From an uncultured cyanobacterium (GTDB lineage Bacteria; Cyanobacteriota; Cyanobacteriia; PCC-9006; JAAUQQ01), in contig OY970368.1 of NCBI GenBank assembly GCA_963718615.1, forward strand, positions 448,977 through 512,976: a DNA stretch of 64,000 bases, written 5' to 3'. Below are positions 7,164 to 27,395 of the stretch, piece after piece. The position numbers and the translations under genes are program-made. The notes under the pieces are model-generated. The model had not been told where the DNA came from, did not search any database, and worked only from the letters and a program-made list of their open reading frames with translations. Each line of letters opens with the position of its first letter. The stretch's first letter is position 1.

Positions 7164-7236
7164 GCCCCCATCGTCTAGAGGCCTAGGACACCTCCCTTTC
7201 ACGGAGGCGACGGGGATTCGAATTCCCCTGGGGGTA
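7164..7236 (+). tRNA. trnE: tRNA-Glu (anticodon UUC)
   Basis: GCCCCCATCGTCTAGAGGCCTAGGACACCTCCCTTTCACGGAGGCGACGGGGATTCGAATTCCCCTGGGGGTA folds as a cloverleaf. The anticodon loop is CT-TTC-AC and the T-loop is GGATTCGAATCC-like. The sequence is near identical to plastid and cyanobacterial trnE as I remember them. Confidence 0.95.
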
Positions 7237-13246: not shown

Positions 13247-13615
13247 ATGGCCACTGTTTTAGTCGTTGACGATACCCCTTCTGAACTTCAGCTCATGTGT
13301 CACCACTTGCGCCAAGCGGGATATTTGGTGATTAGTGCCCAAAGCGCCGATGAAGGATTTACAAAAGCGCTGCAACAGAAACTGGACGCGATCGTGACCG
13401 ATATTGCCATGCCCGGTAAAAGTGGGTTTGATCTTTGCCGCAATCTCAAGGCAGAACCCGCAACCCAAAATGTGCCGATTGTGATTTGCTCTAGCAAAAA
13501 CCAGTCGATTGATAAACTTTGGGCCAAACGCCAAGGAGCAGCGGCTTATATTACGAAACCGTTTGATGGACAGAATCTCGTGGCTTCGGTGCAGTCTGTG
13601 CTAGGGCAAGGCTAA
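13247..13615 (+). CDS. CheY-like single-domain response regulator (PilH/PixH/HmpB-like)
   Basis: MATVLVVDDTPSELQLM..AIVTDIAMPGKSGFDLC..VICSSK..YITKPF. Confidence 0.9.
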   Translation: MATVLVVDDTPSELQLMCHHLRQAGYLVISAQSADEGFTKALQQKLDAIVTDIAMPGKSGFDLCRNLKAEPATQNVPIVICSSKNQSIDKLWAKRQGAAAYITKPFDGQNLVASVQSVLGQG

Positions 13616-14211
13616 TGGACCAGGCAACTGTTACCCCCCGACAGGACAGTAATCGGCAAGGCAGTAATCGGCAAGGCAGTCGTCGCCAGGGCAATGCTCG
13701 ACAGACCTATGTGAACTTCGAGATTACGGCGGAGACACCGGCTCTGCTCTCAACGGTCTATGCCAAGGAAGTCGTGGATGTCCCATTTTCCCAAGTGACG
13801 GCACTGCCCAATATGCCCGCGCCGGTTCTGGGGCTGCTCAACCGCCGCAGCCGCGTTATTTGGTTGGTTGATCTGGCACAGTTGCTGGGGTTACCGCCTT
13901 TGATGCCCACGACCGAGGTCTATCGCGTCATTGTGCTCAGCGTTCATGGGGAGGATTCGCAGGCTTCAGCATCATTGTCGTCAGACCTACCCTTGAGTTT
14001 GATGGCGATCGCCGTCCCCACCATTCGCGGCAGTGTCCGGATCTTGCCCGAGGCCATTCAGCCCCCCTCGGAACATTTATCACCCCTCTTACTGCCCTAT
14101 CTCGATGGATGTTTATCGATCAAACCTCCGCAACCTGAACTTCGCAATGAATTCACCCTCGTTCTCAACGCCAATCGAATCGCCACCTCACCGCTGCTGA
14201 TTCAAGCTTGA
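13615..14211 (+). CDS. CheW-like coupling protein (PilI/HmpC-like)
   Basis: Its start codon overlaps the stop codon of the cheY-like gene (ATG 13615-13617 vs TAA 13613-13615, 1-nt overlap). The CheW-type core is [47 protein letters not shown]. Confidence 0.8.
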
Positions 14212-14242
14212 GTTCATTCTTGTCCTTTCCCAGAGAATCACC

Positions 14243-16570
14243 ATGCAGACCCAGGATCCCAATGTCCTTCCCTCTTCGCCTGCTGCCGCCCCTGACAATA
14301 CTGGCTTTGTGAATTTAGGGGAGATGGCTGGGGGCACCGTGCCAACCCCCTTGGCCCTAGACTCAACCCTAGATAGTGCTGGAGATCAAGCGGGTATTCG
14401 AGCGTTGCTGCGGGGCAATGCGCTGCAAAACCGCCTGCTGACCACCTTTTTGCCCACGGCGCTGGTTCCCCTCTTGCTCGCGAGTGCGCTGGGGTATGGC
14501 ATCATTCGCAATCGCAACCAAGTCACGGCCAAAGTTCAGCTCCAAAACCAATCGCTCTTGGCCAGTGAAGCCACCCAGGATTTTTTGAACGATGCCTTCA
14601 AAACTCCTGCGAGTGTGGCCAGCAACCCCAGTATGCTCAACACCTTGCGCGCCAGTGCACAACAGGCGGAAGCGGAGAAGCTGCCGCAAAAGCCCCTAGA
14701 GCAACTTGAAGCAGACTTTGCCTCAACGCGATTGCTCAAGTTGGATCAAACCCTCAATACCACGCTGGATAAATTGGCAAAGGTGGGGGGATTGGCAGAG
14801 CTATTTATCACAGAACGCAACGGTTTGAACGTGGCCTATAGTCAGGCAACCTCTGACTTTGTCCAAAGTGATGAAGACTGGTGGAAAAACGGTAAGGCCC
14901 AGGGCCGCTGGATTAGTGACCCGGAGTTTGACGAATCTAGCCAATCGGTGAACGTCGATTTGGTGCAATCTGTAGTGGATGATCAGGGCCAGTTTTTAGG
15001 CGTGATCAAAGCGGGTTTGCCCTTCAATACCTTTAGCCGCATTGACGAATATCTCAACACTAAGAGTTTTAAAACCTCCGAGCAAATTCAGGTTCTGGAT
15101 ACTGGCGCAACTCAGTTGCTTAAAACGGTGACGGTTCAGGGCGCTGGAACGGTGAAAGAGGTGACAGGGGGAGAGGCGATCGCCCAACTCTCCGCCGCCC
15201 TTTCCCAACTCAATCCCCAAACGGTGCCGGATACCACCCAGTTGCAATCCGAATGGGAACGGCAGTATGGCGTACAGGGCTTAACGTTAACAACGCTGGG
15301 TTCTGATGACTCGCAATCCGCAAAGCTCTCGGCAACATTTCGCCAGGGCGATCGCCAATATGCCATGACGCCCATTGTGGGAACAGACTGGGTGGCGATC
15401 GCCTCCCTCAAAAACGCAGATATCAACGCCGCTAGTTCGCAGTTGCTCTTGGTCTTTCTGGGAACAGCGGTAGTTCTGGGGGGCATTGCCGCCTTATTAA
15501 CCCAGATTTTGGCGAAGCAACTCTCCTTGCCCCTCACCCAGGAAGTTCAGCGGCAGCAGGAGCAAACCGAAGCGATTCAAATGCAGTTGGTGGAGTTTCT
15601 CACCAGCGTTGAAGGCGCGGCCCAAGGGGACCTAACAGTTCACGCCGAGGTCAGCTCGGGGGATATGGGCACCGTGGCGGATTTCTTCAACCTAATTGTG
15701 GACAGTTTGCGGCAGATTCTGATTCAGGTGAAGCAATCGGCGGGTCAGGTGAACCAATCCGTTTCGGGGAATGAAGCCGCGATTCGCCAATTGGCCGACG
15801 AATCCCTCAAGCAAACGGAGGAAATCTCGAATACGCTCCAGTCCGTGGAAGCCATGGCCCAATCGATTCAGATGGTGGCGAGTAGTGCTAACCGGGCGGC
15901 GGAGGTGTCGCGATCGGCAGCGACTACCGCTTCAACCGGGGAAATCGCCATGGATAAAACCGTGGAAACGATTCTGAATCTGCGGGGTACGGTGGCGGAA
16001 ACTGCGAAGAAGGTGAAACGCTTGGGCGAGTCGTCCCAACAGATTTCCAAGGTGGTCGCGCTGATTAACCAGATTGCGCTCAAGACCAACCTCCTCGCGG
16101 TCAACGCCAGTATTGAGGCGGCACGGGCTGGGGAAGAGGGCGAAGGCTTCGCGGTAGTTGCGGAGGAAGTCGGGGCACTGGCGGAACAGTCGGCCACGGC
16201 CACCAAGGAAATTGAAAAAATTGTCGAAGGGATTCAAAAAGAAACCAACGAAGTGGTTGAAGCCATGGAGGTGGGAACGTCTCAGGTGGTTGAAGGCACC
16301 CGCTTAGTTGAGGATGCAAAAACCAGTTTGGTGGAAATCCTCAGCGTTTCCCGCCAAATTAATGAGCTCCTGCAATCGATTTCTGAGGCCACGGTGTCCC
16401 AGACCCAAACCTCCGACGAAGTGGCACAACTCATGCAAAAGATTACTCAGGTTTCGCGGCAAACGTCCGAATCTTCGCGGACGGTGTCGGACAATCTGCA
16501 GCAAACCGTGGAAATTGCCCAGGATCTTGAAATCGCTGTGGGTCAGTTTAAGGTCGGTACTGAGATCTAA
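14243..16570 (+). CDS. Methyl-accepting chemotaxis protein (PilJ/HmpD-like): two TM helices, an extracytoplasmic sensor of about 300 aa, HAMP and MA domains
   Basis: The signalling hairpin is [43 protein letters not shown] segments lie around [24 protein letters not shown] and [23 protein letters not shown]. No bilin-binding GAF region is evident. Confidence 0.9.
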
Positions 16571-16604
16571 TTGGGGGGGTCTAATTTGGGAGGCCTAATT
16601 TGGC

Positions 16605-19505
16605 ATGGGACAAGCAACTAGACGGGAAATGGGGCGGGAAACCGAGCAGGAACTCCGCCTGCAATTTCTGGAAGAAGCCCAAGAATATCTCAATACGATC
16701 GAGCGCTTTTTGATGGGCTTGGCAGCACGCCCGTTGGACTCTGCCCAGGCGGATGGGGCGCTGCGGGCGGCTCACTCGATCAAGGGTGGGTCGGCGCTGA
16801 TGGGGTTTCAAATCCTCAGTTCGTTGGCACACCATTTAGAGGATTTTCTCAAAATTCTCAAGGCTCGGCGTCAGACCATCCAGGTGGATGCGCCCCTAGA
16901 GAGCCTTTTGCTGGCGGCGTTGGATCAGTTGCGCCAGGAGAGCGATCGCCAACGTGCCGGAAAAATCCTCAACGCCGAAGCCCTCAAACCTCAACTCCAG
17001 CCGATTTTCGGCGGACTGCGTCGCCGCCTGGGGACGCTGCAACCGGAGGACGAGAATGCGCTCCTGTCCGAGGCGAGCGGCACAGATGTGGCAGCAACGC
17101 TGTTTGAGCAGGAAGTGGGGGGATTGCTGGATGATCTGGAGGCAAAGCTACAAACAGGCAATGAAGCGCTGATTGCTGCTGCCCTGACTGAACTGACCCA
17201 GGATCTGCAAGAGTTGGGCATCATGCTCAAACTCCAGGCCTTTGTGCGGTTGTGTGAAGCCGTGGCAACGCAGGCTCAGAAGACACCAGAGCGGGGATTG
17301 GCGATCGCCCAAGCCGCCCTCAAAGCTTGGCGCAAGGCCCATGCCATGGTGTTGGTGGGGCAAGCGGAGAATATTACGAGTCAGTTGGAGGGCTTTGAGG
17401 CAAGGCCAAAGGAAAGGTCAGAGGCAAGGCCAAAGGAAAGGTTAGAGGCAAGGGCCATGGAAACCCCTGCCGACGCCCCACCGCCCAGCCCGCCAATTCG
17501 CGAAAAAACCGTTCGGGTGCCGTTGCGATTGCTGGATCAACTGAGTGATTTGTTTGGAGAATTACTCATTGAGCGCAATGCTTTGAATTTGCGTCTTGAT
17601 CGCCTGCAAATCATGTCGGAGATTTTGCGCGATCGCGTCCAAGAGGTCGAACTATCCAACGATCAACTGCGACGCTTCTACGACCAAGTAGCAACGGAAA
17701 CGGCCATTACCCTAAGCGGCTATCCGGTGCGCGGTCACCAGCTCCAAGGCCGCCAGCCAGGGCATCTGCAATGGGGCCAGGGCAGTGCCACCCTCGATCA
17801 TCACTTCGATATCCTCGAAAAAGACCAGTACAGCAATCTGCATCTGCTCTCTCAAGATCAGATGGAAAACGTCGTGCGGTTGCAGGAGGTCAGCACCGAT
17901 ATTGACCTGGGTCTCTCGGAAGCTCGCCAAGCGGCTCGGAAGGTCAACCAAACCATTAAACAGCTCCAAAACCGGGTTACCCAATCGCGGATGCGGCCCC
18001 TTTCGGAACTGGTGAGTCGGTTTCCCCGTACGATTCGGGAATTGTCGTTGCGCTATGGCAAAACCGTGGAACTAGAGGTGATGGGGGGCACGACGCTGGT
18101 GGATCGGGCGATCGTCGAAGCCTTGGCGGACCCGCTGCTGCATCTGCTGCGCAATGCCTTTGACCACGGCATCGAATCCCCTGAGGCCCGACGGGCAGCG
18201 GGTAAGCCAGAGACAGGACGCATTGAAATTCGCGCCGCCCACCGAGGTCGCCAAACGCTGATCCAAATCCAGGACGATGGGGCAGGGATCAATCTTGAGA
18301 AGGTCCGGGCAAGGGCGCTCAAAATGGGCATTAGCGAAGCCCAACTGGCGCGATCCAGCGAAGCAGATTTGCTAGACCTGATTTTTGAACCAGGTTTTAG
18401 CACCGCTGACCAAGTCACGGATCTGTCGGGTCGTGGCGTGGGTATGGATGTGGTTCGCACCAATCTCAAGCAGATTCGAGGCGATGTTAAAGTCGAAACC
18501 CACGCCGGTCAAGGCACGACGTTTACGCTTTCAGTCCCGCTGACTCTCTCGGTGGTGCGAGTGCTGTTGGTGGAGAGCAATGATTTGCTCATGGCCATGC
18601 CCACGGATGTGATTGCGGAGATGGTCCTGCCCCATCCCGAAATGCTGCTCAGTGCTGCGGGACAGACCCTGCTCAACTGGAATGATTTGATGGTGCCGGT
18701 GCTCAACTTGGGTGACTGGCTCCCGTTTAATTGCCCCAAACGAGCTCTGGAAAGTGAACTAGCAACTAAAATCAATACGCCAACCATTTTGCTGATCCAT
18801 CGGGATAATAGCTGGGTAGGAATTCAGGTCGATCGCTTCCGGGCAGAACAGGAAGTTGCTATTCGCCCCATTGAGGGGCCGTTGGCATTGCCACCGGGCT
18901 GCACGGGCTCGACGATTTTGGGCAATGGTCGCGTGGTGCCGATTATGGATCCCATACAACTCCTGGGCTGGATGACGGGCTGTGATCTTCATCCCGCAAT
19001 GCCGGTGACTGCGAGGGGGAATTCAAGCTCCAATGGCAGTTCCAATGGCAGCTCCAATGGTAACGGCAATCTTGAGGCGATCGCCCCATTCCCATCCTCT
19101 ACGACCTCCACGACCTCCACGGCCTCACCCCCCGTCGTTATGGTGATCGATGATTCGATCAATGTGCGCCGCTTCTTGGCCTTGACGCTCGAAAAGTCAG
19201 GCTATCGTGTGGTTCAGGCCCGCGATGGTCAAGATGCCGTGGAAAAATTAGCCCAAGGGCTTACCGTTCACGGCATTGTCTGCGACTTAGAAATGCCCCG
19301 ACTAGATGGCTATGGGGTCCTGACCCACGTCCGTGAGCAATCCCAATTCAAGCGGTTGCCGGTCATTATGTTGACCTCTCGGAGCAGCGAGAAGCATCGG
19401 CAACTGGCGATGACCCTGGGGGCGACGGACTATTTCTCAAAGCCCTATAACGAACAAGCACTACTCAAACGTCTGCGTTCTGCCCTGGAGACTGCAACTC
19501 GATGA
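16605..19505 (+). CDS. Hybrid CheA histidine kinase (Hpt, dimerisation, HATPase, CheW-like and receiver domains; PilL/HmpE-like)
   Basis: Hpt is AAHSIKGGSALMGF. The kinase boxes are LLHLLRNAFDHGIE, DDGAGI and GRGVGMDVV. A CheW-like segment follows. The C-terminal receiver reads VMVIDDSINVRRF..VCDLEMPRLDG..MLTSR..YFSKPY. Confidence 0.9.
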   Translation: MGQATRREMGRETEQELRLQFLEEAQEYLNTIERFLMGLAARPLDSAQADGALRAAHSIKGGSALMGFQILSSLAHHLEDFLKILKARRQTIQVDAPLESLLLAALDQLRQESDRQRAGKILNAEALKPQLQPIFGGLRRRLGTLQPEDENALLSEASGTDVAATLFEQEVGGLLDDLEAKLQTGNEALIAAALTELTQDLQELGIMLKLQAFVRLCEAVATQAQKTPERGLAIAQAALKAWRKAHAMVLVGQAENITSQLEGFEARPKERSEARPKERLEARAMETPADAPPPSPPIREKTVRVPLRLLDQLSDLFGELLIERNALNLRLDRLQIMSEILRDRVQEVELSNDQLRRFYDQVATETAITLSGYPVRGHQLQGRQPGHLQWGQGSATLDHHFDILEKDQYSNLHLLSQDQMENVVRLQEVSTDIDLGLSEARQAARKVNQTIKQLQNRVTQSRMRPLSELVSRFPRTIRELSLRYGKTVELEVMGGTTLVDRAIVEALADPLLHLLRNAFDHGIESPEARRAAGKPETGRIEIRAAHRGRQTLIQIQDDGAGINLEKVRARALKMGISEAQLARSSEADLLDLIFEPGFSTADQVTDLSGRGVGMDVVRTNLKQIRGDVKVETHAGQGTTFTLSVPLTLSVVRVLLVESNDLLMAMPTDVIAEMVLPHPEMLLSAAGQTLLNWNDLMVPVLNLGDWLPFNCPKRALESELATKINTPTILLIHRDNSWVGIQVDRFRAEQEVAIRPIEGPLALPPGCTGSTILGNGRVVPIMDPIQLLGWMTGCDLHPAMPVTARGNSSSNGSSNGSSNGNGNLEAIAPFPSSTTSTTSTASPPVVMVIDDSINVRRFLALTLEKSGYRVVQARDGQDAVEKLAQGLTVHGIVCDLEMPRLDGYGVLTHVREQSQFKRLPVIMLTSRSSEKHRQLAMTLGATDYFSKPYNEQALLKRLRSALETATR

Positions 19506-20041
19506 AAAATACCTTAGTTCGGACTCGACGCCATCGCAAACGCGTTAAGGAAACGACAGTACAACTAATTACGTTTCAACTGCGCCAGGATTGGTTTGCG
19601 CTACCCATTACTGCCGTGGAGCGAGTGATTCCCCTGGAGGCGGTCTATGGCGAAGCCCATCAGTCGGGCATTGGCCTTACGGTTTACCAGGGTCAAGAAC
19701 TGGTGGTCGTAGATGTGGGCCAGCGGCTTTTTGGGGAAGCGGGTCAAGCAGAGGGCACGTTGCTGCATCTGGATGCCTCCCAACAGGATGTTTTGGATCA
19801 GGTCCAGTTGCTGTTGATTCTCAAGGCTCCGACGGGGAAGCCCATTGGCATTCCAATTGATTCTCGTCCGGTGTTGAAACGGGTGGTAGCGGAGGCGATC
19901 GCCCCCATCCCCCACGAATACCAAACCTCGGGGAAAATCCAATGTGTTAGTTCGCTCTCGGTCCAGGCGGCGGGCGAACCGCTGCTGTTTTTGCTGGATA
20001 CGGAGCAGTTGTTTGAGGCGTTGGCGTTGAGCTTGGTCTGA
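19502..20041 (+). CDS. Second CheW-like protein
   Basis: It overlaps the cheA stop by 4 bp (ATGA). Core sequence: QLITFQLRQDWFALPITAVERVIPLEAVYG..GLTVYQGQELVVVD. Confidence 0.7.
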   Translation: MKNTLVRTRRHRKRVKETTVQLITFQLRQDWFALPITAVERVIPLEAVYGEAHQSGIGLTVYQGQELVVVDVGQRLFGEAGQAEGTLLHLDASQQDVLDQVQLLLILKAPTGKPIGIPIDSRPVLKRVVAEAIAPIPHEYQTSGKIQCVSSLSVQAAGEPLLFLLDTEQLFEALALSLV

Positions 20042-20129: not shown

Positions 20130-22256
20130 ATGGTGCTGACAACAATCCTGATTTTGGCTGCGAACCCAAAGGATACGCAGAAGCTGCGCCTGGACCAAGA
20201 AGTCCGGGATATTGAGGAGGCGCTGCGACGGGCTCCGGCGGGACGCGATCGCTTTCAAGTCATCCAGTACTGGGCCGTCCGGCTGGATGATTTACGGCGA
20301 GCTTTGTTGGAGCATCAACCGCAGATTGTCCATTTTTCGGGGCATGGGGTGGGCGATCGCGGTCTAGTTTTCGAGGATGACCAAGGCAACAGCCAACTAG
20401 CCGACAGCCAAGGCATTGCTAATTTGCTGCGGCTGACGTCCAGCCTTGAATGTGTGGTCTTGAATGCCTGCTATTCCGAGGTTCAGGCTGAGGCGTTGGA
20501 AGCAGCCATATCGGGTTGTCTGATTGGCATGAATCAGGCGGTGGGGGATGAGGCGGCGCGGAAGTTTGCCATCGGGTTTTATGATGGACTGTTTTATGGG
20601 GAGTCCTATGAGCGGGCGTTTGAGTATGGCTTGACGGCGTTGGAGCTGGAGCGGTTGCCCCAGGTGCCGGTTTTGACTTGGGGACGGCGATCGCTCAATT
20701 CTGCCGATGTTTCTCCTCGGCGCGTTTTCATCAGCTACAAGCGCAATGCGCAACCGGATGCGGCCTTGGCCTTGCAGTTGGTGGAGGCTCTCAGCCACAA
20801 TCACCAGGTTTTTATCGATCAGCAGATGGCGGTGGGGGTGCGCTGGCGCGATCGCATCGCCCAAGAGATTCGCCAAGCGGATGCCATGGTGGTGTTGCTG
20901 TCTGAAATGTCGGTCCAGAGCGAAATGGTGGAGCTGGAGGTGAAGCTGGCCCAGGAGGGAGCCGCCAATGTTGGAAAGCCCACGGTGCTGCCGGTGCGGG
21001 TGCAGTACCGAGAGCCGTTTCAATATCCCCTCAGTGTCTACCTGGACCCGATCAACTGGGCTTTCTGGGAGGGACCGGAGGACACCTCGCGCTTGCTGGG
21101 AGAATTGCAGGCGGCGCTGCGCGGTGGCGATTTGCCGGTGGCGACGGCTCAGGCGAAGCAGGCCCTGCTGCAACCAACTGCGACTTCCACAATTCCGAGC
21201 CCCACGCCTTCGGCCCAGCCCCAAACCCAAGCGGCCTGCAACCCAGCGACGCTGGAGCAGCCGGAGGGGACGATGGATCCGGAGTCGGTGTTTTATGTGG
21301 AGCGTCCGGTGGATGCAGTGGCGTTGGAAACCATCGCTCAGTCAGGGGTGACGCTGACGATTAAGGGTCCGCGTCAGATGGGGAAAAGTTCGCTGCTGCT
21401 GCGCACCATTGAGGCGGCGCGGGATGCGGGAAAACAGGTGGTGTTTCTAGATTTTCAGTTGTTTGACCAAGCGGCGTTGCAGGATGCGGATACGTTCTAT
21501 CGGCAGTTTTGCTATTGCCTGACGGATGAGCTGAATTTGGACGACGAGGTAGAGCAATATTGGGCGCGACCTCTGGGGAATCCGCAGCGCTGTACCCGTT
21601 ACGTCGAGCGCCATATCCTTAAGCAAATTCAGGAGCCGATTGTGCTGGCGATGGATGAGGTGGAGCGGATGTTTGATACGCCGTTTCGCAATGACTTTTT
21701 CAGTATGTTGCGCAGTTGGCATAATCAGCGGGCGATGAAGCCGCTGTGGAAGCGGTTGGATTTGGCCTTGGTAACTTCGACGGAGCCCTATCAGCTAATT
21801 GCGGATTTAAATCAGTCGCCGTTTAATGTGGGGCAGGTGTTGCGGCTAGAGGATTTTTCGCCGGAGCAGGTGGTGGCGTTGAATCTGGCCCACGGGGAGC
21901 CCTTTGGGGCGGGGGAGGTGCAGAAGTTGATTGGGTTGTTGAATGGGCACCCCTATTTGACGCGGCGGGCGTTGTATTTGGTGGCGAGTGGACGGCTGGG
22001 GCCGGGGGAGCTGTTTGCCACGGCGGCGGATGAGCGGGGGCCGTTTGGCGATCATTTGCGCTATCACCTGTTCCGCATGTATGACCAACGGGAGCTGGTG
22101 GAAGGTTTTTTGGAGGTGTTGAAACGGCGGGACTGCGAAAATGAGCGGGTGTTTTTTCGGCTGAATGGGGCGGGGATTGTGATGCGCCAGGGTCATGATG
22201 TGGTTCCAAGGTGTCAGTTATATGCCGAATTTTTTGGAGACCATTTACGACAATAA
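20130..22256 (+). CDS. Caspase/CHAT-like domain + TIR domain + AAA-like (STAND-type) NTPase; no repeat or sensor domain
   Basis: ORF 20106..22256 with an ATG at 20130. The N-terminus reads ILILAANPKDTQKLRLDQEVRDIEEAL..IVHFSGHG..CVVLNACYS, giving a His/Cys dyad spaced as in caspase-fold CHAT domains. The TIR domain reads RRVFISYKRNAQPD..DAMVVLLSEMSVQSEMVELE. The NTPase reads FYVERPVD..IKGPRQMGKSSLLLR (Walker A), IVLAMDEVE (Walker B), SPFNVGQVLRLEDFS. Confidence 0.8.
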   Translation: MVLTTILILAANPKDTQKLRLDQEVRDIEEALRRAPAGRDRFQVIQYWAVRLDDLRRALLEHQPQIVHFSGHGVGDRGLVFEDDQGNSQLADSQGIANLLRLTSSLECVVLNACYSEVQAEALEAAISGCLIGMNQAVGDEAARKFAIGFYDGLFYGESYERAFEYGLTALELERLPQVPVLTWGRRSLNSADVSPRRVFISYKRNAQPDAALALQLVEALSHNHQVFIDQQMAVGVRWRDRIAQEIRQADAMVVLLSEMSVQSEMVELEVKLAQEGAANVGKPTVLPVRVQYREPFQYPLSVYLDPINWAFWEGPEDTSRLLGELQAALRGGDLPVATAQAKQALLQPTATSTIPSPTPSAQPQTQAACNPATLEQPEGTMDPESVFYVERPVDAVALETIAQSGVTLTIKGPRQMGKSSLLLRTIEAARDAGKQVVFLDFQLFDQAALQDADTFYRQFCYCLTDELNLDDEVEQYWARPLGNPQRCTRYVERHILKQIQEPIVLAMDEVERMFDTPFRNDFFSMLRSWHNQRAMKPLWKRLDLALVTSTEPYQLIADLNQSPFNVGQVLRLEDFSPEQVVALNLAHGEPFGAGEVQKLIGLLNGHPYLTRRALYLVASGRLGPGELFATAADERGPFGDHLRYHLFRMYDQRELVEGFLEVLKRRDCENERVFFRLNGAGIVMRQGHDVVPRCQLYAEFFGDHLRQ

Positions 22257-22346
22257 CCGTTATGCCCGTAGGGACGAACCGCCGTTCGTCCTTGCCAATA
22301 CCCAAGCAGCAGCCAGATCGAGATTAACCCAGGGATTAACAGCACC

Positions 22347-25300
22347 ATGAGTTCATCGATTTACACCACAGGCGGAACGGTCCAGGCGGGGGGCGGCATC
22401 TATCTGCCCCGCAAGGCGGATGATGAGCTGTTGCAGCTCTGCCGGGAGGGGCAGTTTGCCTATGTGTTGACGCCGAGACAGATGGGAAAGTCGAGTTTGA
22501 TGGTACGGACGGCGGAGCGGCTGGGGGAAGAAGGCGTTACGTCGGTGATTATTGACCTGACCAAGATTGGCACGGAGGTGACGGCGGAGCAATGGTATTT
22601 GGGGCTGCTGACGGAGATTGATGATGCGTTGATGTTGGAGACGGACATTTTTGACTGGTGGGCGGAGCGGCAGCATTTGGGTGTGACGCAGCGGCTGACG
22701 CGATTTTTTGAGGAGGTGCTGCTGGCGGAGGTGGCTGGGCAACTCGTGGTGTTTGTGGATGAGATTGACACGACGCTGAGTTTGGATTTTACGGACGACT
22801 TTTTTATTGCGATTCGCTATTTCTATGTGGGGCGGGCGAAGGCGGAGGCGTTGGGTCGGCTGTCGTTTGTGTTGATCGGGGTGGCGACACCGGGGGATTT
22901 GATTCGGGATCCGCAGCGGACGCCGTTTAATGTGGGGCGGCGGGTGGAGTTGACGGATTTTACGGCGGCGGAGGCGTTGCCTTTTGCCCAGGGGTTGGGG
23001 CCGCAGGGTGAGGAGGTTTTGGGCTGGGTGATGGAGTGGAGTGGGGGGCACCCGTATTTGACGCAGCGGTTGTGTCAGGGGGTGGCGGAGGCGGGGAGTG
23101 GTGTGGACGAAGGCTCTGTGAATCAGTTGGTGGAAAAACTATTTCTGGAGGGGGGAGAGCGGAACGACAATAATTTGTTGTTTGTGCGGGATATGTTGAC
23201 CCAGCGGACGCCGAATCGGAATGAGTCGGTGTATGAGGTGTTGATGACCTATCGGGATGTGTGGTTGGATAGGCAACCCGTGCTGGATGAGGAGCAGTCG
23301 CTGGTGAAGTCGCATCTGAAGCTGGCGGGGATTGTGCGGCGGGAGGCGGATCGGCAAGGGGCGCTGCGGGTGAGCAATGGGGTTTACCGGGCGGTGTTTG
23401 ACGAGGCTTGGGTGAAGGAACATCTCCCCACAAATTGGGTCAAGCGCTTGCAAAGGGCGCGGGCCGCTATTGCTGCATTGCTTGCGGTGACGTTGGTGGC
23501 GGTGCCGTTGGGGGTGTTGGCGGAGTATCGGCGGCGGGAGGCGGTGGAGCAGCGGGCGGAGGCGCAGAAACAAACGATTTTGGCTCAGGCTAATTCTTCG
23601 CGGGCTTTTTTGTTGGCGAATCAACCCTTGGAAGGCATGGTGGCGGCGGTGGCGGCTTGGCAGAAGGTGGAGGAAGAAGATTTGAGTACAGCAACGATGG
23701 CAGCACCAGCAAGGACTGCCCTAATGGGAGGAGCATACTATGAGCCAGGATTTAATCTGGGTCCTGTACAAGCAAAGCGGTTCTCTAAGCGTAGTTTTCG
23801 AGAAAAAAACTTTCTAGAAGGCCATGGCGATAGTGTCATAAGTGTGGCCTTTAGCCCCGATGGAGAGACGATTGCATCCGCCAGCTTGGATCGCACGGTC
23901 AAACTCTGGGATCGGCAGGGAAAGCTACTCAACACCCTAGAAGGCCATGGCGATAGTGTCATAAGTGTGGCCTTTAGCCCCGATGGAGAGACGATTGCAT
24001 CCGCCAGCGATGATCGCACGGTCAAACTCTGGGATCGGCAGGGAAAGCTGCTCAACACCCTAGAAGGCCATGGCTCTAGTGTCTGGAGTGTGGCCTTTAG
24101 CCCCGATGGAGAGACGATTGCATCCGCCAGCTTGGATCGCACGGTCAAACTCTGGGATCGGCAGGGAAAGCTGCTCAACACCCTAGAAGGCCATGGCAAT
24201 TGGGTCATAAGTGTGGCCTTTAGCCCCGATGGAGAGACGATTGCATCCGCCAGCTCAGATCGCACGGTCAAACTCTGGGATCGGCAGGGAAAGCTGCTCA
24301 ACACCCTAGAAGGCCATGGCAATTGGGTCATAAGTGTGGCCTTTAGCCCCGATGGAGAGACGATTGCATCCGCCAGCGATGATCGCACGGTCAAACTCTG
24401 GGATCGGCAGGGAAAGCTGCTCAACACCCTAGAAGGCCATGGCAATTGGGTCAGAAGTGTGGCCTTTAGCCCCGATGGAGAGACGATTGCATCCGCCAGC
24501 TTGGATCGCACGGTCAAACTCTGGGATCGGCAGGGAAAGCTGCTCAACACCCTAGAAGGTCATGGCAATTGGGTCATAAGTGTGGCCTTTAGCCCCGATG
24601 GAGAGACGATTGCATCCGCCAGCTTGGATCGCACGGTCAAACTCTGGGATCGGCAGGGAAAGCTGCTCAACACCCTAGAAGGCCATGGCAATTGGGTCAT
24701 AAGTGTGGCCTTTAGCCCCGATGGAGAGACGATTGCATCCGCCAGCTTGGATCGCACGGTCAAACTCTGGGATCGGCAGGGAAAGCTGCTCAACACCCTA
24801 GAAGGCCATGGCGATAGTGTCATAAGTGTGGCCTTTAGCCCCGATGGAGAGACGATTGCATCCGCCAGCGATGATCGCACGGTCAAACTCTGGGATCGGC
24901 AGGGAAAGCTGCTCAACACCCTAGAAGGCCATGGCGATAGTGTCATAAGTGTGGCCTTTAGCCCCGATGGAGAGACGATTGCATCCGCCAGCGATGATCG
25001 CACGGTCAAACTCTGGGATCGGCAGGGAAAGCTACTCAACACCCTAGAAGGCCATGGCAATTGGGTCATAAGTGTGGCCTTTAGCCCCGATGGAGAGACG
25101 ATTGCATCCGCCAGCTTGGATCGCACGGTCAAACTCTGGGATCGGCAGGGAAAGCTGCTCAACACCCTAGAAGGCCATGGCGATAGTGTCATAAGTGTGG
25201 CCTTTAGCCCCGATGGAGAGACGATTGCATCCGCCAGCGATGATCGCACGGTCAAACTCTGGGATCGGCAGGGAAAGCTGCTCAACACCCTAGAAGGCCA

Positions 25301-25625
25301 TGGCGATAGTGTCATAAGTGTGGCCTTTAGCCCCGATGGAGAGACGATTGCATCCGCCAGCGATGATCGCACGGTCAAACTCTGGGATCGGCAGGGAAAG
25401 CTGCTCAACACCCTAGAAGGCCATGGCTCTAGTGTCATAAGTGTGGCCTTTAGCCCCGATGGAGAAACGATTGCATCCGCCAGCTCAGATCGCACGGTCA
25501 AACTCTGGGATCGCGACCCGCAGAGGCTACTGGCTTGGCACTGCAACTGGCTCCGCGACTATTTGCTCCACAACCCCGATGGGCAAAAGGCAAAGGCAGA
25601 CGGCGTTTGTCGGGGCAGGCTCTAG
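22347..25625 (+). CDS. AAA-like (STAND-type) NTPase + single TM helix + 14 WD40 repeats
   Basis: The N-terminus reads IYTTGGTVQAGGGIYLPRKADDELLQLCREGQFAYVLTPRQMGKSSLMVR (Walker A), LVVFVDEID (Walker B), TPFNVGRRVELTDFT. The hydrophobic helix is AAIAALLAVTLVAVPLGVLA. It is followed by 14 units of LEGHGxxVxSVAFSPDGETIASASxDRTVKLWDRQGKLLNT. Confidence 0.85.
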   Translation: MSSSIYTTGGTVQAGGGIYLPRKADDELLQLCREGQFAYVLTPRQMGKSSLMVRTAERLGEEGVTSVIIDLTKIGTEVTAEQWYLGLLTEIDDALMLETDIFDWWAERQHLGVTQRLTRFFEEVLLAEVAGQLVVFVDEIDTTLSLDFTDDFFIAIRYFYVGRAKAEALGRLSFVLIGVATPGDLIRDPQRTPFNVGRRVELTDFTAAEALPFAQGLGPQGEEVLGWVMEWSGGHPYLTQRLCQGVAEAGSGVDEGSVNQLVEKLFLEGGERNDNNLLFVRDMLTQRTPNRNESVYEVLMTYRDVWLDRQPVLDEEQSLVKSHLKLAGIVRREADRQGALRVSNGVYRAVFDEAWVKEHLPTNWVKRLQRARAAIAALLAVTLVAVPLGVLAEYRRREAVEQRAEAQKQTILAQANSSRAFLLANQPLEGMVAAVAAWQKVEEEDLSTATMAAPARTALMGGAYYEPGFNLGPVQAKRFSKRSFREKNFLEGHGDSVISVAFSPDGETIASASLDRTVKLWDRQGKLLNTLEGHGDSVISVAFSPDGETIASASDDRTVKLWDRQGKLLNTLEGHGSSVWSVAFSPDGETIASASLDRTVKLWDRQGKLLNTLEGHGNWVISVAFSPDGETIASASSDRTVKLWDRQGKLLNTLEGHGNWVISVAFSPDGETIASASDDRTVKLWDRQGKLLNTLEGHGNWVRSVAFSPDGETIASASLDRTVKLWDRQGKLLNTLEGHGNWVISVAFSPDGETIASASLDRTVKLWDRQGKLLNTLEGHGNWVISVAFSPDGETIASASLDRTVKLWDRQGKLLNTLEGHGDSVISVAFSPDGETIASASDDRTVKLWDRQGKLLNTLEGHGDSVISVAFSPDGETIASASDDRTVKLWDRQGKLLNTLEGHGNWVISVAFSPDGETIASASLDRTVKLWDRQGKLLNTLEGHGDSVISVAFSPDGETIASASDDRTVKLWDRQGKLLNTLEGHGDSVISVAFSPDGETIASASDDRTVKLWDRQGKLLNTLEGHGSSVISVAFSPDGETIASASSDRTVKLWDRDPQRLLAWHCNWLRDYLLHNPDGQKAKADGVCRGRL
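23814..25535 (+). repeat. 14 tandem, in-frame 123-bp WD40-coding repeats with near-complete nucleotide identity
   Basis: The unit ctagaaggccatggc...ctcaacacc recurs every 123 nt (23814, 23937, ...). The differences I could see are confined to 4 codons per unit, plus about 4 isolated synonymous changes (cta/ctg, ggc/ggt, gag/gaa). Confidence 0.95.
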
Positions 25626-26384: not shown

Positions 26385-26607
26385 TTCCACCATGACATCT
26401 GCCAGTGCAACTATTTACGCCACAACCCCACCGGCCAACAAGCCCGCGCCCGAGACGTCTGCCAGGGCAGGCTCTAACCCCACCCCTCACCTCAGCCCCA
26501 GACACCGGGGGTTTTGGTCTCATCCTGAAATCTGCATCTCTCCCCCACCAAACTCCCGGCGTTTCAGCCTCCAACTATGAATTCAGGGTTTGCATTACAC
26601 TAAAACC

Positions 26608-27024
26608 ATGCCAGCCAAAGACCTCTATCACGACGCTGTCAAATCAGCCCTGATTCAAGACGGGTGGACCATCACCGATGATCCACTCACCCTTAAGATT
26701 GGCGTTCGAAACCTAGCCATTGACCTAGGAGCCGAGAAACTCCTCGCAGCAGAACGTGGGCCAGACAAAATCGCAGTCGAAGTCAAAAGTTTCATTGGTC
26801 CTTCCCTCCTCTCCGAACTAGAAAAAGCCTGGGGACAGTTTTTCCTCTACGCCCGAACCCTTGCACGGCAAGAACCTGAACGCAACCTCTATCTAGCCGT
26901 AAACAATACAACCTTTGAAACCCTCTTTCAGGAAGAAGCCGGTCAGATCCTCCTTCAAGAGCCAGGATTTCGCTTACTCGTTGTTGATGTCGATCGCCAG
27001 GAAATAGTTCTATGGAAACCCTAG
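26608..27024 (+). CDS. xisH: XisH family protein
   Basis: MPAKDLYHDAVKSALIQDGWTITDDPLTLKIGVRNLAIDLGAEKLLAAERGPDKIAVEVKSF is a characteristic XisH sequence. ATG at 26608. Confidence 0.85.
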   Translation: MPAKDLYHDAVKSALIQDGWTITDDPLTLKIGVRNLAIDLGAEKLLAAERGPDKIAVEVKSFIGPSLLSELEKAWGQFFLYARTLARQEPERNLYLAVNNTTFETLFQEEAGQILLQEPGFRLLVVDVDRQEIVLWKP

Positions 27025-27395
27025 CCCAACCTCACAATTCCCCCAACACCCCAACGCCCCAAACCCTTGAGCAATGGTGTCAGGAAATCGAAAAGATTTT
27101 GCAATATTATGCTGATCTTCCCTATCGCTACGGAGAGGTTACAACGAGCGTTGTTGTTAGTGGCGATCGAAAAAACTTTCTCCTCATCAACGAAGGCTGG
27201 GAAGGCAATCGGCGAGTCTACGGCACCGTCGTCCATGCAGAAATCCGTAACGGAAAAATCTGGATTCATCACGACGGCACAGAGGAAGGCATCACCGAAG
27301 ACTTAGTCGCAGCAGGTGTCCCAAAAGATAACATTGTCCTAGCCTTTCATCCCCCCAGCGTGCGGCAACACACAGGATATGGCGCAGACAGCTAA
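27012..27395 (+). CDS. xisI: XisI family protein
   Basis: It overlaps xisH by 13 nt. Sequence: YADLPYRYGEVTTSVVVSGDRKNFLLINEGWEGNRRVYGTVVHAEIRNGKIWIHHDGTEEGITEDLVAAGVPKDNIVLAFHPP. Confidence 0.85.
   Translation: METLAQPHNSPNTPTPQTLEQWCQEIEKILQYYADLPYRYGEVTTSVVVSGDRKNFLLINEGWEGNRRVYGTVVHAEIRNGKIWIHHDGTEEGITEDLVAAGVPKDNIVLAFHPPSVRQHTGYGADS

Follow-up and report, generated by a model that had tools for sequence, protein, structure and literature searches.

Two adjacent genes of an uncultured cyanobacterium raise the question of whether bacteria can divide the recognition and output functions of a nucleotide-binding leucine-rich repeat receptor (NLR) over two related proteins. They lie on the forward strand of contig OY970368.1 (assembly GCA_963718615.1), within a stretch of 64,000 nucleotides, positions 448,977 to 512,976, which was analysed as a whole and is called the window below. 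Gene A encodes a CHAT-like protease, a TIR domain and a nucleoside triphosphatase (NTPase), and gene B a paralogous NTPase followed by a transmembrane (TM) helix and WD40 repeats (Table 1). A preliminary description of the locus, made from the DNA letters, had delimited two open reading frames (ORFs) on a common strand with a gap of 90 nt, and had likened them to a sensor/helper NLR pair. Coordinates, strand and gap were all borne out, and the ATG at 20130 agrees with the N-terminus MxKKILILAANPK of the homologues of A. The pair is a real and conserved two-gene system, and apparently an undescribed one. We consider it probable that A and B constitute one self-contained, NLR-like conflict module, acting in immunity or cell death, in which B would be the receptor and A the executor.

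More than 2000 homologues of A were found at E <= 1e-10, and the best 120 were all of about 700 aa, with the order CHAT-TIR-NTPase. A scan of one genome per prokaryotic species gave at least 598 relatives, from which 80 loci were fetched. Partners were called with hidden Markov models (HMMs) built from the A alignment, and only loci with enough flanking DNA were evaluable (n=75). At 71 of these 75 loci in other species a B-type gene was directly beside the A-type gene, 68 times co-directional with B after A, and 3 times head-to-head with B before A. The partner at locus L050 was counted by hand from the HMM coordinates, its ORF start being extended upstream. The reverse look-up, starting from B-type homologues on long contigs, recovered in 4 cases out of 4 a TIR-AAA_35 gene upstream, ending 8 nt inside B. 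An 8-nt overlap of stop and start was also the commonest geometry (18 loci), which suggests coupled translation of A and B. Pairing, proposed from the one locus by the preliminary description, is thus conserved. No third component accompanies it, as no flanking family is conserved, the best one, a Ser/Thr kinase, being present at 8 of 86 loci; and the A homologue nearest to ours (70% identity) has the pair in another genomic neighbourhood. Carriers of the pair belong to Cyanobacteria, Chloroflexota, Acidobacteriota, Rhodothermales, KSB1 and Verrucomicrobiota, at least six phyla, and are mostly filamentous cyanobacteria and Chloroflexota. Relatives were found in 75 plasmid records, at up to 6 places in one record, and several genomes contain more than one copy.

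The separation of effector from sensor, which had been described for the window, also proved to be family-wide. All 120 A homologues analysed were of the CHAT-TIR-NTPase type without repeats, and 118 of 120 B homologues consisted of the NTPase, with or without WD40, and had neither TIR nor CHAT. A fused, single-chain effector-NTPase-sensor form was absent from these 240 proteins. Speculatively, and by analogy with NAIP/NLRC4, the lack of such a form may reflect an unequal stoichiometry, in which few B molecules seed many A molecules. Around these constant parts, the ends of both proteins are exchanged. In A-type proteins the TIR domain is constant and the N-terminal module is swapped: a short CHAT in cyanobacteria, and elsewhere a full-length CHAT, a Ser/Thr kinase, a trypsin-like peptidase, a ParA/MinD-like P-loop domain, or nothing. 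In B-type proteins the NTPase and the hydrophobic helix are constant and the C-terminus is swapped, with WD40 in the majority, often as 14 blades, and CHASE2, CHASE2 plus kinase, kinase, FGE-sulfatase, TPR, GUN4, DUF4384, DUF2610 or CHAT in the others. Such swapping of effectors and sensors is typical of conflict systems.

A few loci showed particular arrangements. Two B-type genes follow one A in tandem at L070 (10179-14921), and two database proteins (P0126) consist of two B-type NTPase modules in tandem. On a Chlorohelix plasmid (L092, NZ_CP128402.1, 193667-200303), a large AAA-like gene precedes the A-type gene. In Calothrix sp. NIES-2098 (L004, 8135-8332), a 65-aa ORF, seen at no other locus, overlaps the end of A and the start of a CHASE2-type B. 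Finally, a Chloroflexota kinase-TIR-AAA_35 protein (L046, 6759-7988) gave a weak, sub-threshold match to EAD7 at its N-terminus (E = 0.0026; 18 bits, the cut-off being 32). EAD7 is an effector-associated domain of a conflict-system network (Kaur et al. 2020, PMC7159879).

The two NTPases are related, with 31% identity over 251 residues (E = 4e-29). The preliminary description had assigned them to one shared module on the basis of Walker A, Walker B and (S/T)PFN motifs, and this was found to be right: both proteins carry RQxGK(S/T)S as Walker A, DE as Walker B, (S/T)PFN.G and GHPYL, with no variation or almost none across 70 A/B pairs. All 70 A-type and all 70 B-type proteins kept the Lys of Walker A and the Asp-Glu of Walker B, and both NTPases look active as far as motifs can tell. 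Mean identity across the 70 pairs was 56% among A-type modules, 56% among B-type modules, and 26% between types (maximum 32%). The distance matrices of A and B were correlated (Mantel r = 0.93, 0.81 for the main clade alone, none of 2000 permutations being as high), a correlation which is expected for any co-inherited genes and measures co-inheritance, not interaction. This pattern shows two old paralogous lineages, inherited as a unit since before their spread over phyla.

One position distinguishes the paralogues. The residue before (S/T)PFN is Gln in A-type proteins (67/70; Gln562 here, where B has Arg) and Arg in B-type proteins (69/70; Arg191 here). In the AlphaFold2 (AF2) model it is located between strands 4 and 5 of the nucleotide-binding domain (NBD), which we take to be the arginine-finger site (box VII, or SRC motif) of initiator and clamp-loader AAA+ proteins. 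Arg191 of B would then be a putative arginine finger, without counterpart in A. If this is right, only B would supply a finger to the nucleotide site of its neighbour, and the assembly would be intrinsically asymmetric.

The preliminary description had called both NTPases STAND-type (signal transduction ATPases with numerous domains), and this holds at the level of the fold but not of the family. In the AF2 models of A and B the NBD is of alpha/beta type and is followed by a helical bundle and, at the C-terminus, by a unit made of a helix and a beta-hairpin; the GxP motif of the helical domain, GHPYL, is invariant in both paralogues. This is the succession of NBD, helical domain with GxP and winged helix of a STAND or nucleotide-binding oligomerisation domain (NOD) protein in the sense of Leipe et al. 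2004. The effector, NTPase and repeats of such proteins are not on a single polypeptide here, being split in all 240 homologues. None of the Pfam families of the named STAND clades (NACHT, NB-ARC/AP-ATPase, SWACOS, MalT, nSTAND1-3) matched A or B at E <= 0.1; apart from AAA_35, the NTPase matches in Pfam were to the generic AAA_22, AAA_14, AAA_16 and ATPase_2, all below cut-offs. Among fold matches, CED-4, the plant NLRs and the Avs structures are equalled or outranked by ORC/Cdc6 and by archaeal proteins of Arch_ATPase type (2fna, 2qen). To judge from these models, AAA_35 is a NOD module of ORC/Cdc6-STAND type, outside any named STAND clade.

HMM matches in A and B supported the CHAT, TIR and AAA-like domains that had been proposed, and AAA_35 scored 365 bits in A and 110 bits in B, for a curated cut-off of 27 bits. 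Because the CHAT match spans only the catalytic half of the Pfam model, we regard this part of A as a short caspase-fold module. It matched the protease domain of the SAVED-CHAT structure 8tl0 by profile (E = 8.8e-25) and by Foldseek (2e-9, root mean square deviation about 3 A, 30% identity). As in caspase-fold CHAT proteins, a His-Cys dyad is found in an HG...(A)C context, and both its residues, His72 and Cys114, are invariant among 30 homologues; protease activity is putative on this basis. Glu270 of the TIR domain is likewise invariant among homologues and would, by motif register, be the equivalent of SARM1 E642, at the (S)xWCxxE position, the HMMER alignment to SARM1 ending just before the motif. 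The product of gene A stops 5 residues past its NTPase. Its AF2 model (predicted local distance difference test, pLDDT, 86) found its best match in the Protein Data Bank in the tetramer core of the plant TIR-NLR RPP1 (1e-11 over about 580 columns), with further matches to SAVED-CHAT, the archaeal ATPase 2qen, ORC/Cdc6 and CED-4. The closest solved relatives of the enzyme modules of A, namely the SAVED-CHAT filament, Cat1 and SARM1, are enzymes switched on by oligomerisation.

Gene B differs by what follows its NTPase. In the AF2 model of residues 1-480 (pLDDT 84), the NBD and helical domain are succeeded by a winged-helix-like unit, and then by a continuous 60-residue helix (364-423) of which the hydrophobic segment is part. 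In Foldseek, this model matched the archaeal AAA+ protein 2fna and ORC/Cdc6 best, then Sr35, CED-4, Roq1, Avs4/Avs3 and RPP1. The preliminary description had rightly recorded the TM helix of B but underrated its weight, since an equivalent hydrophobic helix is kept in 62 of 68 B partners. Across the B partners, K+R residues numbered 3.4 before and 2.4 after the helix, and D+E residues 1.35 before and 2.44 after, a modest bias. CHASE2-type partners have extra TM helices where expected, and the partners carrying only a cytoplasmic-type enzyme (CHAT at L047, kinase at L050) have the weakest hydrophobic segment or none. For these three reasons we favour, with moderate confidence, a predicted N-in/C-out topology, in which the sensor, by virtue of the helix, is probably located across the membrane from the NTPase. 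The conserved helix makes B unlike the cytoplasmic Avs or NLR sensors.

The WD40 array of B, counted at 14 repeats in the preliminary description, was retrieved as 14 stretches by Pfam and as 13.8 copies of a 123-bp unit with 96% match by Tandem Repeats Finder. Units 1 to 13 are 96% identical as DNA, and amino-acid variation in the array is restricted to codons 6, 7, 9 and 25 of the 41-codon unit. The variants at these codons are mostly multi-nucleotide swaps (D/N/S, S/W, I/W/R, L/D/S), and only 2 synonymous variants were seen outside of them. Fungal HET-E/NWD receptors have the same pattern of variation, their variable positions lining the top face of the propeller. By the general rule for WD40 hotspots, we take the variable positions of B to be top-face hotspots as well. 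The internal conservation of the arrays of other B partners was 0.72-0.93 in 10 of 12 cases (0.60 and 0.51 in the remaining two), and their most variable positions were 6, 7, 9, 25 and 27. Hotspot variability has been reported for highly repetitive prokaryotic WD40 proteins, and the pattern of B is the same as theirs (PMC5587647). By these sequence features, the sensor of B is diversifying.

The reading we favour brings together the domain content, the intact catalytic motifs, the strict pairing, the co-divergence, the swapping of effectors and sensors and the hypervariable sensor positions; from these we infer contact between A and B, the direction of signalling, the membrane topology, the enzyme activities and the biological outcome. 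B would be a receptor with a cytoplasmic NTPase, a TM helix, a stalk and ligand-binding C-terminal WD40 propellers, most likely across the membrane. A would be a soluble executor, in which the paralogous NTPase is joined to a constant TIR domain, NAD+-consuming or signal-making, and to a swappable enzyme, here the CHAT protease. [quoted passage not shown] The resulting A oligomer would gather the TIR and protease domains and switch both on, as the solved relatives (SAVED-CHAT filament, Cat1, SARM1, RPP1) need such proximity. NAD+ loss or nucleotide signalling, together with proteolysis, would lead to growth arrest or cell death.

Several points weigh against this reading. Four A-type loci (L048, L053, L055 and L061) are without an adjacent partner. 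The neighbours of the pair in the window are housekeeping genes (upstream a chemotaxis-like operon, downstream genes for XisH/XisI, a ferredoxin and a thioredoxin) and do not form an obvious defence island. No system-level model of PADLOC was matched by A or B, no relative was found in phage records, and no defence phenotype is known for the pair. Some B partners end in enzyme-type domains (CHAT, kinase), so that a pure sensor role does not apply to every B. As seen above, the charges flanking the B helix show a modest bias, and the propeller array would have to be exported via a single signal-anchor helix, which is plausible. Physical contact between A and B is a proposal; the tests made were of genomic linkage and domain complementarity, and the Mantel correlation pertains to co-inheritance.

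An alternative, which we regard as unlikely, is that B is a guard or inhibitor holding a constitutively competent A inactive in a hetero-complex, so that loss or modification of B, or its release by a ligand, would free A, as in RGA5/RGA4, CHS3/CSA1 or toxin-antitoxin pairs. The tight translational coupling implied by the 8-nt overlap and the strict co-inheritance would suit a toxin and its restrainer; at locus L088 it is the A gene, not B, that is broken, by two insertion sequence copies; and hetero-complexes in the resting state are documented for paired plant NLRs (PMC11298796). On the other hand, the intact NTPase motifs of B and its putative Arg finger, absent from A, suit a passive clamp less well than active nucleation. 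Orphan A genes that seem intact (L053, L055) are also hard to reconcile with a lethal, unrestrained toxin, though B could sit elsewhere in these genomes.

About as improbable, in our view, is that the pair is a module of transmembrane signalling or regulated death of filamentous bacteria which serves development, allorecognition or stress and not defence against phages. B would then report an extracytoplasmic cue, such as the state of the envelope, a neighbour or kin molecule, or a CHASE2 ligand, to which A would respond by TIR-made nucleotide signals and limited proteolysis. WD40 repeats that are hypervariable and highly conserved are a hallmark of the fungal allorecognition NLRs (HET-E/NWD). 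The predicted extracytoplasmic sensor, the use by some partners of CHASE2, a classic environmental receptor domain, the predominance of filamentous cyanobacteria and Chloroflexota among carriers, the housekeeping context in the window and the prokaryotic hotspot pattern of the repeats (PMC5587647) are all in line with such a role. Yet effector and sensor swapping, plasmid carriage, multiple copies per genome and a patchy spread over distant phyla usually mark conflict systems and not developmental regulators. There is also overlap between the two readings, as altruistic death of an infected cell of a filament would be both.

That A and B are independent, their adjacency being a leftover of tandem duplication, is nearly excluded: the two are paralogous and tandem duplicates are common, but the duplication is older than the spread over at least six phyla (26% identity between A and B, against 56% within type), adjacency, order and overlap are kept at 95% of loci, and each protein is without exactly what its partner has.

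Returning to the receptor/executor module, we compared it with described systems. PADLOC matches were at the level of domains (chat, SAVED_CHAT, SAVED-TIR and ThsB, with a weak P-loop match to PDC-S01, 4.7e-6 over 79 residues), and B matched a generic repeat model only. Avs/AVAST, bNACHT and other PADLOC-modelled systems were rejected on these grounds. Thoeris was rejected too: NCBIfam ThcB4 gave 36.9 bits for a cut-off of 220, Pfam ThsB_TIR was below cut-off, and no ThsA-like gene was present near the pair. In the searchable literature, we found no paper naming PF14516 by accession, no relevant AAA_35 paper, and nothing on AAA_35 among paired or two-gene bacterial STAND or NLR systems. AAA_35 is unmentioned in Kaur 2020, Kaur 2021, a 2024 paper on diversity-generating retroelements and a 2026 STAND survey. 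PADLOC and the searchable literature thus agree with the earlier statement that no characterised system has this architecture. The absence of any precedent holds for this family; as a concept the arrangement does have a single one, which the preliminary description missed, in the nSTAND2 two-gene operon (PMC8195603).

nSTAND2 is a mobile two-gene operon with paralogous STAND-like NTPase cores and a predicted toroidal hetero-multimer (Kaur, Iyer, Burroughs, Aravind 2021, eLife e70394; PMC8195603). Like A/B it is bacterial, has a paralogous STAND-like core in both products and varies its effectors. However, one nSTAND2 paralogue has eroded NTP-binding motifs, whereas A and B are both intact; the effectors are GT4 or HEPN there and TIR plus CHAT in A; and no TM helix or repeat sensor is described there, while B has both. 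We rejected the identity of A/B with nSTAND2, since every one of the AAA_35 motifs is missing from its published alignment. These motifs gave no match in the supplements of PMC8195603, of which the nSTAND1 and nSTAND3 files were covered in part, and identity with these two families is unlikely.

In function, the pair is like NAIP/NLRC4 and the plant pairs (RGA5/RGA4, RRS1/RPS4, CHS3/CSA1, sensor-NRC), where two paralogous NOD-type NTPases divide recognition and cell-death output between them. The plant pairs are often linked as adjacent genes, as A and B are, and the whole of A resembles a plant TIR-NLR minus the repeats, RPP1 being its top fold match. These systems use NACHT or NB-ARC in place of AAA_35, in hosts that are not bacteria; in addition, B is membrane-anchored with a probably external sensor, A carries a protease next to its TIR, and the interaction is a proposal here. 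The single-chain STAND proteins Avs/AVAST and bNACHT, and the conflict systems of multicellular bacteria of Kaur et al. 2020 (PMC7159879), have the same logic of effector, NTP switch and repeat sensor, and Avs3/Avs4 are among the fold matches of B. These systems also draw on a common vocabulary (TIR, caspase-like, trypsin, kinase; WD40, TPR, FGE-sulfatase) and are enriched in filamentous bacteria. They differ in that the parts of A/B are split on two polypeptides, each with its own NTPase, and that a conserved TM helix lies between NTPase and sensor. SAVED-CHAT (of type III CRISPR), Cat1, SARM1 and TIR-NLR resistosomes are activated by filament or ring assembly, as proposed for A; A has no SAVED or CARF nucleotide sensor, and its activation would come from an NTPase oligomer, not from a cyclic nucleotide. 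Fungal HET-E/NWD proteins and prokaryotic repetitive WD40 proteins (Hu et al. 2017, PMC5587647) have near-identical blades with few variable positions, like B, but the fungal NLRs are single-chain and cytoplasmic, while in B the array stands behind a TM helix and the NTPase lacks an effector on the same chain. By analogy, then, the pair would work like sensor/helper NLRs in function and belongs to none of these families. What sets it apart is that it is divided between two paralogous AAA_35 NTPases, with a membrane-spanning sensor partner and a double-enzyme executor.

The NLR-like immunity characterised in bacteria to date consists of single proteins sensing phage parts inside the cell, and the pair looks like an equivalent, in bacteria, of the paired sensor/helper immune receptors of plants and animals. 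If this is true, such pairs are not an invention of plants and animals, and a simple two-gene model becomes available for one NOD nucleating another. Through the conserved membrane helix, a death switch of NLR type may, in bacteria, be linked to extracytoplasmic sensing. AAA_35 (PF14516), with thousands of members, receives a first functional hypothesis. Together, the swappable sensors and the four hypervariable codons per WD40 blade make up a natural library, whose recognition surfaces could be mined or given new targets. More tentatively, and with less than even confidence, we propose a widespread and so far undescribed class of transmembrane split NLRs, in which an external hypervariable sensor (WD40, CHASE2, FGE-sulfatase or TPR) would act through one TM helix on an AAA_35, the only one of the two with a putative arginine finger, that would nucleate a cytoplasmic AAA_35 carrying TIR and a second enzyme. 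Such a class would join outside sensing of the Toll-like receptor kind, TIR output and NAIP/NLRC4-like assembly, and would have originated before several phyla split.

Table 1. Coordinates in the window of genes A and B, their domains and their predicted functional residues.
Feature	Coordinates	Strand	Residues or size	Remarks
Gene A	20130-22256	+	708 aa	CHAT-like protease, TIR and A-type AAA_35 NTPase; no sensor domain
CHAT-like caspase-fold protease module	20130-20684	+	1-185	Pfam CHAT PF12770, 2.5e-10 (residues 43-161); 8tl0 matches
Putative protease dyad, His	20343-20345	+	His72	HFSGHG
Putative protease dyad, Cys	20469-20471	+	Cys114	LNACYS
TIR domain	20715-21134	+	196-335	TIR_2 PF13676, 2.8e-19 (residues 199-314); aligns to SARM1 TIR and Cat1
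Putative catalytic Glu	20937-20939	+	Glu270	in SEMVxxE motif
Linker TIR-NTPase of A	21135-21260	+	336-377	P/Q/S/T-rich, low confidence; pLDDT 36-45 at residues 350-370
A-type AAA_35 NTPase (NBD, helical, winged-helix)	21261-22256	+	378-708	AAA_35 PF14516, 3.1e-109 (residues 378-703)
Walker A of A	21366-21392	+		
Walker B of A	21654-21659	+	D509/E510	
A-B spacer	22257-22346	+	90 nt	holds a perfect 12-bp hairpin
Gene B	22347-25625	+	1092 aa	B-type AAA_35 NTPase, TM helix, helical stalk and 14 WD40 blades; no effector domain
B-type AAA_35 NTPase	22347-23426	+	1-360	AAA_35, 1.4e-31 (residues 10-249); AF2 pLDDT 84
Walker A of B	22470-22496	+		
Walker B of B	22758-22763	+	D138/E139	
Paralogue-specific Arg	22917-22919	+	Arg191	in RTPFN
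Predicted single TM helix	23454-23522	+	~370-392	Kyte-Doolittle 2.55 (19-mer, residues 373-391)
Helical stalk/linker of B	23523-23813	+	393-489	helices 364-423, 429-443, 449-464; lower pLDDT
14 tandem WD40 units of 123 nt	23814-25535	+	490-1063	two 7-bladed propellers' worth

The hairpin of the A-B spacer (22268-22295) is GC-rich, and the 101-nt spacer region has a folding free energy of -26.5 kcal/mol (z = -3.25). No T-run is found at the hairpin, which occurs once in the window, and we rejected a terminator or a repeated element on these two counts. As most other loci have the 8-nt gene overlap in place of this 90-nt spacer, the ratio of B to A expression may be set differently here. A strong positive GC skew (+0.2 to +0.46) between 20000 and 23800 is limited to gene A and to the portion of gene B that encodes the NTPase; upstream the skew lies at about 0 to +0.1, downstream it is negative, and GC content inside is slightly up (0.57-0.62). 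Such a composition may be characteristic of the gene family or a trace of horizontal acquisition.

Upstream, a chemotaxis-like operon on the same strand (13615-20041) ends 88 nt before gene A. It contains CheW, a methyl-accepting chemotaxis protein with dCache, a CheA-CheY hybrid kinase (Hpt, HATPase_c, CheW, receiver) and a second CheW. A functional tie to this operon was rejected, all other loci having different flanks. About 1 kb downstream of gene B lies an overlapping XisH/XisI gene pair (26590-27395; 8.3e-52 and 3.2e-35). Both the operon and XisH/XisI are considered incidental, because no flanking family recurs and the pair of the closest A homologue sits elsewhere. Beyond XisH/XisI, on the opposite strand, are genes for a NIL-ferredoxin protein, a thioredoxin, and TerB-like, CCB2/CCB4 and IF-2B-family proteins. 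The sole Rfam/ARAGORN match in the 64-kb window was a tRNA-Glu (UUC) at 7164-7236.

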